A stretch of DNA of 64,000 bases from an uncultured Thermoproteaceae archaeon. Lineage in GTDB: Archaea > Thermoproteota > Thermoprotei > Thermoproteales > Thermocladiaceae. Position 1 is the first letter of the stretch. Each line of letters begins with the position of its first letter. Under the pieces are notes generated by a model, which saw only the letters and a program-made list of their open reading frames with translations, searched no databases and was not told the origin of the DNA. A program made the position numbers and the translations under genes. Below are positions 54,516 to 64,000 of the stretch, piece by piece. The stretch lies in NCBI GenBank assembly GCA_964575955.1, contig CAZNTG010000006.1:352001-416000 (forward strand), given 5' to 3'.

Positions 54516-55584
54516 GAAAGAATAACAAACACTCCACCCCTCAAACGCTAAACACCGTGATTAACAGGAAGTTGAAATACATTAAGACTCACTATCACGA
54601 TGTTGAGAAACGACCGAGAAGTGAATTACCTAAGATACCTAGCCAATTCTGCAACATAGCTAATCTCCAATAATAAGAGAGCAATCGTCAAGGGCATGAA
54701 ATATGCATCTATCCTAGAATGATAAGAAACTTCCTAAAATACTTCGACAAGCAGAGTATCGAAGATATTTACGAAAATCTATAAAGACATAATTCACAGT
54801 AACTTGAAGAGAATAGAATTATAAAAAAGTCAACAGAAAGACTCTGCAAAATGTTCGGAGTTTCCGAATTTTCTAATTGAAAAGGAGATCCATCCAAACG
54901 AGAAGCTCAAGCAAATGTATGAGTGAAGAATCCCTATCGCTACAACAAGCGCTATATGTACAATGACTAGCTCCAGAGTACGTAACATAGTGAATATATC
55001 TGTGTAGAATCACCTCTACGGAAGAAAGTGGAGAGTAGTCTTGCAATTGCTGGAGTAGTAGCATTATTACTAGATCTACAGGACAGACATGTTGTAAACA
55101 GGATGACATCAAAGACGGCAAACCACCATAGGACAACATAGTTCGTAAATTATTAAGGAAACTCTACAATGTGTGCCATGACTACTTGGATGGTTATTTA
55201 CCTCATTTAAAGCAGGACGTTGTCCTAAGTTTTGACGAAGGTTTCGGATATTGGTGACCCTCCACGTATGCGTTGCGTGCCAGGAATATCGTGTATGCAA
55301 ATCTAGATGAGACATGGCATTTGTTAAAACTAATCTGTACATAACACATGCCTGAGCTAATTTTCAGAACATTTAGTCGCAAAACATTGAAGTAGTGTTC
55401 ATAACATAAGACTATGGAGACCTATATGAATCGGAGATAGGTCATGTCCTACTAAACAATAGCGACATTACATGTCATAACGAGGCAGAGGTCTAAATAA
55501 GACTATTTAAGGACGAGTATACAATACTATGCAGACTAGTTTGTATATGCGAATCTTTATTAGGGTATGAGACTTGTGTGAACT

Positions 55585-55915
55585 GTGGTTAGGGCAGCCG
55601 ATATTGAGGCACTGTTTGATAAGTATTTAGAGGAGCATGACCTAGCACGTGCTGATACGCTTCGTCTCGTTCTAATGTACGGCTTAGGCTGTGGTGATAC
55701 TATACTGATACGATATGGCAAGATATCTGTGCTGAATGATGTTTTAGCGGAGCTAAAAGATAGGGATATCGATACATCAAGATTGGGAGATCATCTTGGA
55801 CACTTCGAGGACGTACCTATGACTATTAGAGATACCGTCTCAACCATGTTTAAAGTACGATTTCTCGATATATTACGTGAGCATCTAGTGAAAAATATTG
55901 CAGATCTACCTGTCT
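55585..55915 (+). pseudogene. Truncated hypothetical gene (N-terminal fragment)
   Basis: Protein-like to ...HLVKNIADL, then reads as the antisense of the HNH gene. Confidence 0.45.
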
Positions 55916-56424
55916 TCCATATCTTAAATACCCCACTTACGACTTTACGTCCTTTGTTCTCATCTATACTGTTCACTCTTAGAAACCATGAGAATGCTTG
56001 GTCGAACTTTCCTGTAACAGTCGCATATCCCAGGTGCTTAGCTTTATGGCATAACTCGCATACTGGCCTAATATTGACAAGTACTGCTGTACCATGTTTG
56101 TCCTCTTCATGGATGTAATATCTCCAGTCTTCATCTAAATGTTTTGCATCATTGATGCTGCATATGGAGCATTTGCTTTGGCGAAAACTTGTGAAACCAT
56201 AATTCATATAATGCATCTAGAGCCTCTGCATAACTTTCATACTGATCCTCGGAGATCTCGCCTAGCTTTACAAGAATTTTCGATAGCATTGGGTCAAGTC
56301 TAGCAAGCGATGCAAGAGAGATATTCCATAACGGTGATGGTACAAGCCTAGGACATAGCCTAAATCCGTTGCAAATATTCTCATATGCTTCCATTACTAA
56401 CGAACATGTATTCAACCATTGCAT
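55900..56424 (-). pseudogene. Frameshifted, truncated HNH-type endonuclease
   Basis: Frame A LCPRLVPSPLW...ELW; frame B KCSIC..HLDEDWRY..RPVCELCHKAKHLGYA; shift near 56180-56200. Confidence 0.7.
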
Positions 56425-56700
56425 AAATACGTTTTCTTAGGTAAGAAGCAGTTCTCTCTAGAAAAAACAGGGTGTTTAGACATCCAAGCAAGTATGTGAG
56501 ATCTGGCTAGCATACTAAATGAGTGAAATTACATTATGTGACATAGCTTTACGTGAAGACCACGCATTGTAGACAGAGCTCTATATCTCAGCCAGGCTAG
56601 TGTATTAGGAAATTTGTCTTCACATAACCGTAGTTACGAGCTAGTACTGTCAGGAGAAATTTTAGGTATGTGTACAGTCTCGTGAAGAGCTATATCGATA

Positions 56701-57222
56701 CTAACGTATTCCAAGTGTAGACCGTATCTCGTTGATAGTACTCTCCACACTACGTCTATCTTTAGTACAGAAGGTCAGTTCAATTTGAGGATATCCTTTC
56801 TCAGACCTTTGCTGAAGAGTCTGTACAGTCCTTATTCCTCTGGGTCTAATTACGTGTATGAACGCCCTTGTGAACTCAACTTGTACTCCTCCAAGAAGTA
56901 TTCTCGTTATTTTTCCACAAATTGCATTTATTTCATTCTGTACCTGTTTTAATTTCTTATTAAGATGCTTTCTAAGTCTCTCACCACGTGCAAATACGTT
57001 AGGGTCAGGTTCGTAGAAGTCGACTATAGCGACTTGTACGGTGGATCTTTCGGCTTGGCGGTATACGACAACATCTGGCACAGATATGCCTCTTGATTGA
57101 CCAACTTTGTCTAGAGTGTTAACATCAAAACACCATACACCTGGTACGTTGCTTAGCTGTCTGCAAATTTCTTCCGATAAGTCCTTTTCAAGTCGTCTTC
57201 TTCTCCCTGTATCTCCCACCAT
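56701..57222 (-). CDS. Putative PD-(D/E)xK-like nuclease partner of upstream ATPase
   Basis: LEKDL helix, VPDVVVY, AIVDFYE, KLKQV; starts 3 nt after the ATPase stop. Confidence 0.55.
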   Translation of the reverse strand: MVGDTGRRRRLEKDLSEEICRQLSNVPGVWCFDVNTLDKVGQSRGISVPDVVVYRQAERSTVQVAIVDFYEPDPNVFARGERLRKHLNKKLKQVQNEINAICGKITRILLGGVQVEFTRAFIHVIRPRGIRTVQTLQQRSEKGYPQIELTFCTKDRRSVESTINEIRSTLGIR

Positions 57223-57225
57223 GCG

Positions 57226-58968
57226 TTAAGCTTCTGAGCCTGTTTCTGTTGATTCTTCTCCTAACTTGGACAATAGTTGCAGTAATTTGTAGTGTTCTTG
57301 GATGAGCTTTTCTGCCTCGTATGCGAAGACTATGTCATCGTAAACTCCAGTGTCAGTAATTGGCAATTTTTCAACTATTACTCTTCGTCTGTCATCACGA
57401 TAGGTAAACTCGTACGCTACCATCAATGTAGATGGATCAAATTTTGTCTCAGCGATGGTACTTAATATCTCAGTAATGATATTGCGTTCTTTCTCTGACA
57501 ATTCTGTGAGTGTGAGTAGTGTGTCTTCTATACATGCTTGTACGTTATTGGGAGACTTATCGATACAAAGTCTAAGTAGTCTTAGTCTAAGAAGTTCATT
57601 ATTTAGTTGACATAGCAGGAATTCGCTATGTGTAGCAAATGTCATGAATAGTGGTCCTATAGATGTGATACCGTGTCTAAGCGCTAGTGCATGTCTATAC
57701 GCTATTATCAGCGTTATCACTCTTGCAAACTTACGTATAGCTGCTGGGTGTAGATGAATTTCAGGTTCGTCAATAAATACTAGCGGTGGTGTCCTTTCGA
57801 GTGCTGTTAATAGCAGTAGTGGTCCAATGAGTGCTCTAGAGCCAGAGGGAGCATTAGCAACATCAGTTTCAGCTAAGCCAGGTCTATAGCTCAGCCATGC
57901 ATCCCACATGTATAGATCCTGACCAAGACGTACAACCTGTGGATAGACGTCTGTTAGACCAAGCTCTTGCAAGACTTCTCTCAGTAGTTCGATAAGTACG
58001 CATTCTGGACGTTTAGAGAGCTGAGTATCCCAAGTTTCAGAGTACCGGCATAGTAGCATCATATTGTGGACTGTATGTGCAGCTTTGCCAACACGTGAGT
58101 AGGCATAAAACTCGGATATGTCGTGAGGCCAGAACGTTACTCTCGTGTCTGGAATGAGCACAACATTTCCTGGTCCAGCTCCTAGAATAGGAAATGATAC
58201 TCCAAGTAGCTCTGTAGCCAGCCCTGATATAAGCCTGGCAAACTGTGCAATACAGTTCTCCTCCGTTATCACGTAGTCTTCGGATCCCAAGCACGTCAGG
58301 ATTGGTCTATACTCAAGTAAGTACTTACCCTCTCGAACTTTAACGACATTAACGTTCTTTGTTAAGTAATTCTCCACAAGGCTGTGTGCATTTTCACTAA
58401 GTATATACACATTGCATTCCTTGAGGGAAACACGCTCTTCTTTCTTGCCAAGCTCAATCACAACCTTAGACTCAGCACCCTCATGCTCTACAATGAGCTC
58501 TATCGAACCTCTATCTCGATCTCTTCTAACAATAATGTCTACCAGAGGACTTGACCTTACTAGTGCTTGCACCCATGCTGTGGGATATCTGCACAGCACT
58601 GTGTAGCCAATAGCTAAGAAGAGACTTCCAAAGTTCGCAAATAGTTTATTCAAGAAGTTCAGTGTTAACTCAGTGAGAATCTTGCAAAGATTATCAACTT
58701 CGCCCTCTGCAGCTAACTTGAGAGCATTTATCAGGTCAGTAGCTTTCTGCATAGGCTCACTAGCTATGAAGACATCGACAAGCCCTGGCACTATTGTTGG
58801 TGCTGAAAGAGCGAGAGCATACAGCAGCCTTAGCAGGAAAGATTTACCCGTCGCATTTTTCCCCGTGAATATTGTTATTGATCTCAGCTCAACCTCTGTA
58901 CCATCATCAAATGGTCCAATCCCATCCAGTTTAACCTTGACACTTTTCGCAGTTATAGTGCTTAGCAC
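57226..58968 (-). CDS. ABC-type AAA_21/OLD-like ATPase (defence-associated family)
   Basis: GIGPF, Walker A FTGKNATGKS, signature APSG, Walker B/D-loop FIDEPEIHLHP, H-loop ATHS. Confidence 0.88.
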   Translation of the reverse strand: MLSTITAKSVKVKLDGIGPFDDGTEVELRSITIFTGKNATGKSFLLRLLYALALSAPTIVPGLVDVFIASEPMQKATDLINALKLAAEGEVDNLCKILTELTLNFLNKLFANFGSLFLAIGYTVLCRYPTAWVQALVRSSPLVDIIVRRDRDRGSIELIVEHEGAESKVVIELGKKEERVSLKECNVYILSENAHSLVENYLTKNVNVVKVREGKYLLEYRPILTCLGSEDYVITEENCIAQFARLISGLATELLGVSFPILGAGPGNVVLIPDTRVTFWPHDISEFYAYSRVGKAAHTVHNMMLLCRYSETWDTQLSKRPECVLIELLREVLQELGLTDVYPQVVRLGQDLYMWDAWLSYRPGLAETDVANAPSGSRALIGPLLLLTALERTPPLVFIDEPEIHLHPAAIRKFARVITLIIAYRHALALRHGITSIGPLFMTFATHSEFLLCQLNNELLRLRLLRLCIDKSPNNVQACIEDTLLTLTELSEKERNIITEILSTIAETKFDPSTLMVAYEFTYRDDRRRVIVEKLPITDTGVYDDIVFAYEAEKLIQEHYKLLQLLSKLGEESTETGSEA

Positions 58969-59551
58969 AGTATCCAGATGTAAAATTTACTGTCAATCTT
59001 ATTAGCTTTCTAGAGATGTAAACTCTACGCTACGTTACAGATTCAACATTTCATGCAGACACTACTCATCTTTCTAGATTCATATTACCATAATGTACGA
59101 CCTCGTTGGTCTAGTTCTTGGAGTATCTCTTCAATCTAATCTCTATGCTCGATGTTGTATACGTAGACTTTACGTTAAAGAGCTCTTTTTACGAATAGTG
59201 AGAATTCGTAGAAAACATGACATCAACATTTTACATAAATCGCATTTTCAGAGCTTTCAATAAGACTTCTAAAACAGCGTGACATCACATCTTGAGGACT
59301 CTATGACAAACGCGAGAGAGATCGTAAACACACTAATACCGCTAGCACAATGATAGTCACGCAATCATCACAATTTTGAACTAGAGTATGAAAAGGAGAG
59401 GTCATAAGGATTTGAAGACGTTCTTACATAAAGATGTTAGGGACTCATAACAAAAGTACAGCCTCTATGATTGAAAGAATTTAAAATCGGCCTAAATGTC
59501 GGAAAGTTCTTCATACCTCTTAAATCGAAGGTAAGTACTGTTTAGACTATA

Positions 59552-59644
59552 TTGCTAAGTCTCGTATTAGGTTTAGTGATAGGTTACATAATAGGTACTA
59601 GAAGAGCAAGAAAGAGGAAAACTGTACATACAGTACGATTGTAG
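59552..59644 (+). pseudogene. Orphan membrane-anchor fragment or micro-protein
   Basis: LLSLVLGLVIGYIIGTRRARKRKTVHTVRL*: TM plus basic tail in host-like codon style, no upstream frame. Confidence 0.35.
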
Positions 59645-59724
59645 ATCTCTATATAAAAATTAATAGGTGATAAGTATGATGAGACTAGAATAAAGAATTT
59701 AAATTTCCATTAGGGATCTATACT

Positions 59725-60558
59725 ATGAATATCAGTTTTTTATCAAGTAAGTATTTGATTATTTTTACATGTCTAGTGTTTGTTGTAGGTATGTTTGTTG
59801 GATGTTTTGTTAGTTATATGTTTTTCTTATGTAAGTATCATGGTTATGGCTCGATTAGTTATTCTAAATTTGATTTTTATTTTTTGTCAAATTCTAAGAT
59901 GTTTAATAGATGTTCTACATATAGAGACTTTTTGAATAATTTTGTTGAGTGTTATTCTGTAATTCTCATACTTTTAAAGTATTTGACATATTTAAAATAT
60001 AGTTATCTTAAACTTGAGAAATTGTATAATTCTCTTAAGGTTAATTGTAGTAGTATTATTGAGAGATGTATTAAATATGGTTGGTCTAATTTGAGTGTTA
60101 AAGTTCTTTTTGATAGAGAGTATTATTATAGTCTTATTAGAGATATTGAACATGCTAATAAGAGTATATATGTTGCTATGTATGTTGTTAAGTACGATCC
60201 TCACGATGTTCATGATTGGGCTAATGATCTGATTAAAGCTCTTGTAAGAGCTAAGAAGAGAGGTGTTGTTGTTAAGGTTCTTCTTGAATATAGGACTTAC
60301 TTTGGTTATGTGAAGTATAACTATCTAGCTTATAGATATTTGAAAGATCATGGTGTTGATGTTAGACTTGACTTTAATCCTGATACTGAGCATATGAAGA
60401 TTGTTATTATAGATGGGAAGATTGTGTATATTGGTTCTCATAATTGGTCTGAAGCATCACTATACTACAATCATGAGGTATCTATAAGGATTGTTTCTAG
60501 AGATATTGCTAAAGAGGTTGAAAAATATTTTAACTATCTATGGAACAGGGCAGGCTAG
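59725..60558 (+). CDS. Membrane-anchored phospholipase D/Nuc-family protein (single HKD motif)
   Basis: HMKIVIIDGKIVYIGSHNWS..NHE; ANKSIYVAMY; N-terminal TM. Confidence 0.88.
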   Translation: MNISFLSSKYLIIFTCLVFVVGMFVGCFVSYMFFLCKYHGYGSISYSKFDFYFLSNSKMFNRCSTYRDFLNNFVECYSVILILLKYLTYLKYSYLKLEKLYNSLKVNCSSIIERCIKYGWSNLSVKVLFDREYYYSLIRDIEHANKSIYVAMYVVKYDPHDVHDWANDLIKALVRAKKRGVVVKVLLEYRTYFGYVKYNYLAYRYLKDHGVDVRLDFNPDTEHMKIVIIDGKIVYIGSHNWSEASLYYNHEVSIRIVSRDIAKEVEKYFNYLWNRAG

Positions 60559-63190: not shown

Positions 63191-64000
63191 CTTTCAATCC
63201 TCTTTTTGAGATTCAGGTTATAGACCACCTCAACGATATTGGTCTCGAAGAGTTTAGTCTTTCAATCCTCTTTTTGAGATTCTGTAGGTACCCCAGACAC
63301 AGGTTGCCAATTTGTCCAAGTCTTTCAATCCTCTTTTTGAGATTCTGCAGCTAAGTATTCAAATCTACCACTACCAGGACAAATAATGCTTTCAATCCTC
63401 TTTTTGAGATTCCTTTAATGGTCGCACGTTGGTAGGCATGTAATAGTATGAGCACTTTCAATCCTCTTTTTGAGATTCATCTTGCACATGTTTAACATAT
63501 GCGTTATGTAGTTGATAGTGCTTTCAATCCTCTTTTTGAGATTCCTCCCCAGTCTGAGGGTGGCAGTTTTATGTTCATTGCAATGTCCTTTCAATCCTCT
63601 TTTTGAGATTCGAAAATACAAAGCAGTTATGCTTCGATATTATATACGATATTACTTTCAATCCTCTTTTTGAGATTCCAGTACTGCATATACTACATCT
63701 GCATACTCGACACTGACATTGATGCTTTCAATCCTCTTTTTGAGATTCTGCAATATGTGACAAAACGTATGTCTACAATAGTCGTAGAGTACAACTTTCA
63801 ATCCTCTTTTTGAGATTCAATCAAACAAAATAAACAGCACTTATAATTATTATAAAATTGTCTTTCAATCCTCTTTTTGAGATTCTAATAAACGCATTCA
63901 ATGAGGTTGCCTCGAGCGGCGCAAAGTTGCTTTCAATCCTCTTTTTGAGATTCATAGTAGGAACTGTTGGTGATAGAGATGTTGAAGTTGTACGTAGCTT
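63191..64000 (-). CRISPR. CRISPR array: 12 complete identical 24-bp repeats plus start of a 13th; continues past window
   Basis: Plus-strand repeat CTTTCAATCCTCTTTTTGAGATTC at 63191, 63259, 63322, 63389, 63455, 63521, 63588, 63655, 63725, 63795, 63862, 63930 and (partial) 63998; spacers 39-46 bp; reverse complement ends in the ATTGAAAG handle. Confidence 0.99.

Follow-up and report, generated by a model that had tools for sequence, protein, structure and literature searches.

Do the only two intact genes of an otherwise eroded, foreign island in the genome of a Thermoproteales archaeon from a hot spring encode an antiviral module, and has a module of this kind been described before? The question is raised by a window of 64,000 nucleotides (nt; the whole stretch of DNA that was analyzed) from an uncultured Thermoproteaceae archaeon (GenBank assembly GCA_964575955.1, contig CAZNTG010000006.1, positions 352,001 to 416,000), in which a gene for an ATP-binding cassette (ABC) ATPase is followed by a small partner gene. 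The first-pass annotation of this window had proposed that the pair is a sensor-effector defense system kept under selection, with an effector that may be of an unnamed type. We favor, as a finely balanced judgment made by analogy, the reading that the pair came in by horizontal transfer and is a variant, restricted to one species, of the antiviral modules that join an ABC-ATPase sensor to a small effector with a restriction endonuclease (REase) fold, the class that includes PD-T4-4, WonAB and HEC-02. Whether the pair still works is not readable from sequence, and its function is uncertain. The features on which the argument is built are the following.

57226–58968, minus strand: ABC ATPase gene, an open reading frame (ORF) of 580 amino acids (aa) with a GTG start
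56701–57222, minus strand: small partner gene, an ORF of 173 aa with an ATG start
58981–58990, minus strand: A/T-rich box TAAATTTTAC, read from the sequence, about 13–22 nt upstream of the GTG start
54535–59700, no strand assigned: foreign single-copy island bearing the pair, delimited by the GC profile and a break in synteny, with an approximate right boundary

The two ORFs lie where the first-pass annotation had placed them, with 3 nt between the ATPase stop and the small-ORF start (the junction reads TAA-CGC-ATG), and all of the motifs that it quoted are present in the translations. Both frames are co-directional and open, and together they comprise 753 codons without a stop or a frameshift. 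A frame of at least 173 codons appeared in any of the six frames in 5 of 2000 first-order Markov simulations (0.25%) of the 5166-nt island. The GC content at the first, second and third codon positions is 0.52, 0.40 and 0.32 in the small ORF and 0.55, 0.38 and 0.36 in the ATPase gene, that is, the same pattern, whereas the third-position GC (GC3) of six neighboring host genes is 0.12–0.22, below that of both genes of the pair. Because a chance ORF of this length is rare, and because the codon-position GC of the small ORF agrees with that of the ATPase gene, unlike that of the host, both frames look like real coding sequences of foreign origin. The box TAAATTTTAC is a possible archaeal TATA element, and its position would be compatible with a leaderless or near-leaderless transcript. 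A second, independent DNA sequencing run contained identical low-depth fragments of the island, with one contig spanning the left boundary and no variation; none of the listed runs was of RNA.

Judged by profile and motif, the ATPase is a divergent, insertion-bearing member of the Thermoproteales family of PD-T4-4_A-like (OLD-type) ABC ATPases. Its assignment as a defense-type AAA_21/AAA_15 ABC ATPase is supported by Pfam matches above the cut-offs (AAA_21, E 1.1e-12, 49.1 bits, cut-off 27; AAA_15, E 1.8e-11, 44.7 bits, cut-off 32.1) and by PADLOC (version 2.0.0, which predates WonAB). The top PADLOC match is AriA (1.6e-16), slightly ahead of the PD-T4-4_A model PDLC04033 (9.6e-16, with the best stretch confined to residues 369–458); PtuA (5.5e-9) and PDC-M01A (1.8e-7) follow, and further matches include GajA, HEC and PDC models, among them HEC-02A (1.3e-11, over residues 11–54 only). 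The sole match in the PDB sequence search was the retron Eco8 OLD nuclease (7.8e-4).

The protein has Walker A (GKNATGKS, residues 36–43), APSG (373–376, with the signature PSG at 374–376), a combined Walker B and D-loop (DEPEIHLHP, 400–408) and ATHS (445–448, with the H-loop THS at 446–448). It keeps G36, G41, K42, S43, S375, E401, P402, E403, H405, H407, T446, H447 and S448, which occupy invariant columns in the alignment of 14 sequences. In the C-terminal extension (residues ∼450–580), the conserved L484, Y519, G541, F548 and E558 are kept as well.

Distant ATPase relatives of 450–490 aa were found in 15 of 61 other genomes of the order, which the source names of related proteins indicate to be Thermoproteales. 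The window ATPase aligns end to end with 13 of these relatives at 21–26% identity and is the most divergent member of the family. A profile of the 13 relatives, built without the window ATPase, recovers it at E 3.4e-37 (114.6 bits) over residues 8–459 plus a weak stretch at 524–563, and the matched profile positions are 6–385 and 418–456 of 460. Four insertions add ∼110 aa to the protein relative to the ∼470-aa family. One of them (residues ∼101–123, ∼23 residues) is strongly hydrophobic and is absent from all 13 relatives. No close relative of the ATPase was found, and searches of phage records and of viral, metagenome and genome contigs gave only short ABC-motif matches.

The relatives also show which partner is usual for this ATPase family. 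An ORF of 113–136 aa lies immediately downstream of the ATPase gene in 13 of the 14 full-length relative loci, and the small proteins of this partner family share a K-x-A-D ... EE motif. They are annotated as hypothetical and match no Pfam or PADLOC model, and two scanned members of the ATPase family match PD-T4-4_A at 2e-33 and 5.9e-24. The AlphaFold2 model of the K-x-A-D ... EE partner, computed from 15 sequences, has a predicted local distance difference test score (pLDDT) of 85 and a predicted TM-score (pTM) of 0.80, and the structures that it resembles most are domains with a restriction-endonuclease fold: the nuclease domains of NucS and FokI, then Cdn1, Can2, XPF and several restriction enzymes. 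One canonical pair is located in the same genome (G000:C7:115786–117635; L002, 583–2058 and 2067–2432), also in a stretch of raised GC; the other relative loci are L005–L018. The firmer point of this analysis is a general one: Thermoproteales commonly carry PD-T4-4/WonAB-like pairs with small partners that the catalogs miss, and archaeal defense content is under-counted because these partners match no Pfam or PADLOC model.

The 173-aa partner of the window ATPase is an orphan. A word-seeded search of 5.8 billion proteins returned only its own 99%-identical copy, and an exhaustive phmmer search of 1.84 billion representative proteins returned the same copy and no true homologue. A second phmmer match (P0004) was rejected as spurious: this tandem-repeat protein reaches its score by adding up six weak stretches, and it gives no BLASTP alignment. 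Metagenome contigs yielded nothing outside the 99% cluster of the ORF itself, nothing better than E 0.1 was found in the PDB sequence search, and no Pfam or NCBIfam model was matched above its cut-off. The only PADLOC match is Shedu SduA, which is marginal (E 0.0064, 13 bits) and covers residues 51–102, the motif region.

We nevertheless consider a restriction-endonuclease fold probable for the small ORF. The ESM Atlas model of the exact sequence has a pTM of 0.80 and a pLDDT of 0.77. Six of the ten rows of structural neighbors in the Atlas are McrBC (McrC), DUF2357, PDDEXK_7 and PDDEXK_GAPS4 proteins, with TM-scores of 0.58–0.66 normalized by query. The named language-model neighbors (PDDEXK_18, Shedu SduA_C, MunI, PDDEXK_1, NucS_C and XisH) all belong to the PD-(D/E)xK clan and all score below 0.9, so that they serve as leads only. 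In the sequence, E17/E18 lie in a helix predicted at the N-terminus, and P49-D50-VVVY and AIVD68-F-Y70-E71 follow. The first-pass annotation had suspected a PD-(D/E)xK-like protein with a non-canonical motif, and the Atlas neighbors, the feature matches within the clan and the SduA match are leads in the same direction, with Tyr70 in place of Lys.

The architecture itself, an OLD-type ABC ATPase coupled to a small PD-(D/E)xK protein, is not an unnamed type, because this pairing is in print and has been tested. According to the published accounts, it has been described and shown to defend in PD-T4-4, WonAB and HEC-02. PD-T4-4 is listed as a PD-(D/E)xK nuclease-NTPase system with a P-loop NTPase as the accessory (bioRxiv 10.1101/2025.07.10.664194). 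The paper on WonAB reports that defense needs both genes, that K34A, R182A, E300A and H333A in WonA and K71A in WonB each inactivate the system, and that WonB is modeled on WonA's C-terminal extensions in their dimerized form; its authors see a relationship with PD-T4-4 and with operons described as 'OLD-ABC ATPase + novel REase', 'in some cases with a distinct nuclease' (PMC12137116). HEC-02 is presented as an ABC ATPase with a NERD-type PD-(D/E)xK protein, both genes being required for defense (bioRxiv 10.1101/2024.01.29.577857).

The window pair resembles PD-T4-4 of E. coli as a two-gene operon of a P-loop/ABC ATPase and a small partner, here a candidate PD-(D/E)xK protein (∼190–206 positions in PD-T4-4), and its ATPase has a PD-T4-4_A match that ranks slightly below AriA and is best over residues 369–458 only. 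It differs in that the small ORF matches neither PD-T4-4_B model, the ATPase is ∼110 aa longer owing to the four insertions and lacks the Arg of its family at position 263, and the host is archaeal. With WonAB, carried by the WASA-1 prophage of Vibrio cholerae and compared here by its published description, the pair shares an OLD-type ABC ATPase followed by a small, here putative, variant PD-(D/E)xK protein as cargo of a mobile element, as well as variable ATPase inserts and the C-terminal extension that is the docking site of the nuclease in the WonAB model. Defense has been shown for WonAB, whereas the window pair is known from its sequence alone. HEC-02 likewise combines an ABC ATPase with a partner of the PD-(D/E)xK superfamily, and the N-terminus of the window ATPase matches HEC-02A; however, this match is limited to residues 11–54, and the small ORF has no HEC-02B or NERD match. 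The Thermoproteales pairs of a ∼470-aa ATPase and a ∼125-aa K-x-A-D ... EE protein share the ATPase family, the gene order and the tight coupling, but the window partner is non-homologous to theirs by hhalign and hmmsearch and is 40–60 aa longer.

PARIS (AriA/AriB), Septu (PtuA/PtuB) and Gabija (GajA) have ATPases from the broad OLD-type ABC clade that also includes the window ATPase. The effectors of these systems are TOPRIM or HNH proteins; no intact TOPRIM or HNH gene partners the window ATPase. An AriB/TOPRIM (DUF4435) partner was found neither among the four island ORFs scanned against PADLOC nor among the five scanned against Pfam. PADLOC gave no match to the Septu partner PtuB, and the HNH gene nearby is broken and belongs to another family, that of the HNH-HhH-Bles03 fusions, in which the intact relatives have no PADLOC match.

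If the pair works by analogy with its described counterparts, the ATPase would dimerize head to tail via Walker A and the signature motif, and its variable inserts would sense an infection cue. The C-terminal extension would hold the 173-aa partner, and an ATP-dependent rearrangement would license the partner to cut nucleic acid, which would halt the virus and might sacrifice the cell. For the partner, we infer the fold, the binding to the ATPase, the nuclease activity and the role in defense. Complex prediction with the family alignment of the ATPase and the small ORF gave an interface score (ipSAE) of 0.00 in both runs, which is evidence for neither side.

The island around the pair is ∼5.2 kb long (5166 nt) and has an overall GC of 0.398 in a genome of ∼0.32. 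Along the window, GC is 0.39–0.44 across ∼54.5–59.7 kb and ∼0.31 in the flanks on both sides, and the island is one of 10 stretches with a GC of at least 0.40 in the 1.52-Mb, 15-contig genome. A second copy was sought genome-wide and the island proved to be single copy; its DNA matched none of 400 other genomes from the phylum. Position 54534 of the window is where synteny with a sister genome (G012:C70) ends. In the sister genomes, synteny is lost or the contig ends at the left boundary, and the gene on the right flank is found in one of six other genomes of the genus. A clean insertion site is accordingly undefined, since synteny fails on the left and the right-flank gene is rare among the genomes of the genus. 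Neither an integrase nor a tRNA nor a flanking direct repeat was found to mark the island. Some 2 kb of its sequence contains no ORF with a family match, and the only other recognizable gene is broken:

55791–56424, minus strand: HNH-HhH-Bles03 fusion pseudogene (context, outside the pair), frameshifted and truncated

Two ORFs, ORF91 (56149–56424, frame -1) and ORF141 (55791–56216, frame -2), are two frames of this one broken gene. ORF141 (141 aa) matches the HNH endonuclease family phrog_5200 at E 7.7e-14 and has no match in the PDB sequence search. When a 410-aa frame of a sister genome (G020) is aligned with the window, its residues 15–66 fall on 56415–56281 (frame -1) and its residues 82–214 on 56204–55794 (frame -2), which locates the frameshift to the interval from 56281 to 56204; for the C-terminal ∼190 aa, the window has no corresponding sequence. 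Relatives of the gene in two sister genomes are open frames of 365 and 410 aa, and the full-length relatives carry HNH, HhH or Bles03 (PF08939, 6.9e-7) domains. Such fusions of 365–410 aa (L043, 2–1096; L044, 859–2025, minus strand), which combine Bles03-like and HNH domains, are unusual in archaea. A 177-aa frame on the plus strand (55585–56118), antisense to the pseudogene and with no family match, is most likely a shadow frame. The rise in GC, the single copy and this broken HNH gene together bear out the earlier description, in which an eroded, foreign island retains the pair as its only intact genes.

The HNH gene shares its strand with the small ORF and lies 276 nt downstream of it, which allows another reading of the locus: the island may once have held a Septu- or PDC-M01-like system with the HNH protein as the effector and the 173-aa protein as an accessory, a system that died when the HNH gene broke. 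This reading would agree with the weak matches of the HNH gene to PDC-M01B (4.3e-4; 0.0036), with the matches of the ATPase to PDC-M01A (1.8e-7) and PtuA (5.5e-9), and with the occurrence of HNH fragments on the same contig as an ATPase pair in one genome (G013) and 13 kb from such a pair in another (G020). However, the full-length HNH relatives are 365–410-aa HNH-HhH-Bles03 fusions without a PADLOC match, and no HNH/ATPase operon was observed: the G013 fragments lie on the opposite strand ∼4.5 kb away, the gene of G020 is 13 kb off, and in a third genome (G015) no ATPase match reached E 1e-5. Moreover, the nearest family of the ATPase pairs with REase-fold proteins rather than with HNH proteins. 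We therefore consider a Septu- or PDC-M01-like origin very improbable.

Several results weigh against the favored reading of the pair as an ABC-ATPase/REase-fold antiviral module, and they concern the ATPase, the partner and the island in turn. The ATPase had been credited with full ABC motifs; the quoted motifs and the invariant residues are indeed present, but residue 263, at the Q-loop position, is Gly (Gly263), and at this site all 13 aligned relatives carry the Arg of a G-R-A-G motif; the protein is also an outlier at 7 of 19 near-invariant columns. With the insertions removed, the family Arg lies ∼116 residues before the Walker B Glu, which is followed after another ∼34 residues by the H-loop His. 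Since this spacing resembles that of R182, E300 and H333 in WonA (distances of 118 and 33; PMC12137116), the family Arg presumably corresponds to WonA R182, so that the window ATPase would have Gly at the equivalent of a residue that is essential in WonA. In the partner, D50 and D68 are present, but Tyr70 occupies the place where the Lys of (D/E)xK is expected and where WonB has the catalytic K71.

Nor does the partner show detectable homology to any other protein. The PD-T4-4_B models PDLC04034 and PDLC04035 match nothing genome-wide at E up to 1, the comparison of the small ORF with the Thermoproteales partner family gave an hhalign probability of 0.14% and an hmmsearch score of 0.3 bits with filters off (--max), and the small ORF is present in none of 61 other genomes of the order, which places the pair in one species only. 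The single-sequence AlphaFold2 model of the small ORF has a pLDDT of 43 and is too poor for a fold search; the order of secondary-structure elements in this low-confidence model is alpha-beta-(alpha)-beta-beta-alpha-beta, with D50 opening a strand and D68 closing the next. Because this model is poor, the fold assignment draws on the Atlas ESM model and the sub-threshold scores, which form one source of evidence. Finally, the rest of the island is dead.

Taken together, the same observations can be explained by decay. The pair may be a non-functional remnant, the last open cargo of a dying island, which is open only because the acquisition was recent and in which the missing Arg and Lys are early signs of erosion and the partner has diverged too far to be recognized. 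Such an explanation would account for Gly263 and the seven outlier columns of the ATPase, for the partner without a Lys at the (D/E)xK position, for the frameshifted and truncated HNH-Bles03 neighbor and for the ∼2 kb of island without a family-matching ORF. A GC3 that has not drifted towards the host value fits a recent arrival, and no homologues were found in the protein, phage, viral, metagenome and genome-contig searches. On the other hand, 753 codons have been kept in two adjacent frames without a stop or frameshift while the neighboring gene broke, and the ATPase retains its other ABC motif residues together with L484, Y519, G541, F548 and E558 of the C-terminal extension. With a pTM of 0.80, the Atlas ESM model of the partner is confident, as would be uncommon if the frame were drifting, and an identical copy is present in the second, independent run. 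We regard decay as the main rival explanation but a rather unlikely one. The stronger claim, that the pair is kept under selection, is not supported: homologues and variation, the latter in the second run, were both lacking, and the ATPase deviates at an Arg that is invariant in its family.

The absence of the catalytic Lys also allows another interpretation, in which the module works and the 173-aa protein is a non-nuclease with a REase fold, that is, an adaptor, a DNA binder or a regulator of the ATPase, the effector being encoded elsewhere or being the ATPase itself. Catalytically dead PD-(D/E)xK folds are known, and no nuclease family passes the threshold with the small ORF. Nevertheless, the protein has acidic residues where metal binding would call for them (E17/E18, D50, D68 and E71), and no other intact effector gene is present in the island. 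In the described modules of an ATPase and a small REase-fold protein, as far as the published accounts go, the small protein is in every case the nuclease. A non-catalytic partner is thus improbable in our view.

A further way to accommodate both deviations is that the pair is a working module that arose by effector replacement together with a change in the sensor. The Lys-less D ... D-x-Y partner would then have replaced a K-x-A-D ... EE protein, next to an ATPase that lacks the Arg at the Q-loop position and bears four inserts. We give this a small chance only. If true, the ABC-ATPase/REase class would gain a configuration that is new in both catalysis and regulation, and the pair would be a natural case in which partners were exchanged on a conserved docking extension at the C-terminus.

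What is particular to this locus in any case is that a sequence-unrelated, Lys-less partner lies beside the most divergent ATPase of its family. Should the pair be active, it would reveal how much divergence in partner and ATP site ABC-ATPase/nuclease antiviral modules tolerate without losing their function, and it would contribute an effector of hyperthermophile origin that is very small, has a nuclease fold and is unusual in its active site. The case by itself, one decaying locus specific to one species, is of modest value.

The surroundings of the island are defensive, with a CRISPR array and type I-A cas genes nearby.

63191–64000, plus strand, continuing past the window: start of a CRISPR array (context; Rfam CRISPR-DR45)

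The array begins ∼4.2 kb to the right of the island and comprises 34 CRISPR-DR45 repeats, 12 of which are within the window. It is followed by type I-A cas genes assigned by Pfam, in the order Csa1, Cas1, Cas3 HD, Cas3 helicase, two unassigned ORFs, Csa2, Csa5 and Csa3. The array and the complete type I-A cas cluster reach G000:C6:417440 (L049, 3174–12892).

The gene that adjoins the island on the right (59725–60558, plus strand), the one found in one of six other genomes of the genus, encodes a PLD-like protein of 277 aa (PLDc_2, 5.5e-28), hydrophobic in its N-terminal segment, and has the GC of the host. The protein may act as a lipid enzyme or as a nuclease of the Nuc type. Elsewhere in the genome, the strongest compositional outlier of the assembly is a 23-kb stretch (G000:C8:35501–58500), where GC rises up to 0.52 against a genome value of ∼0.33.

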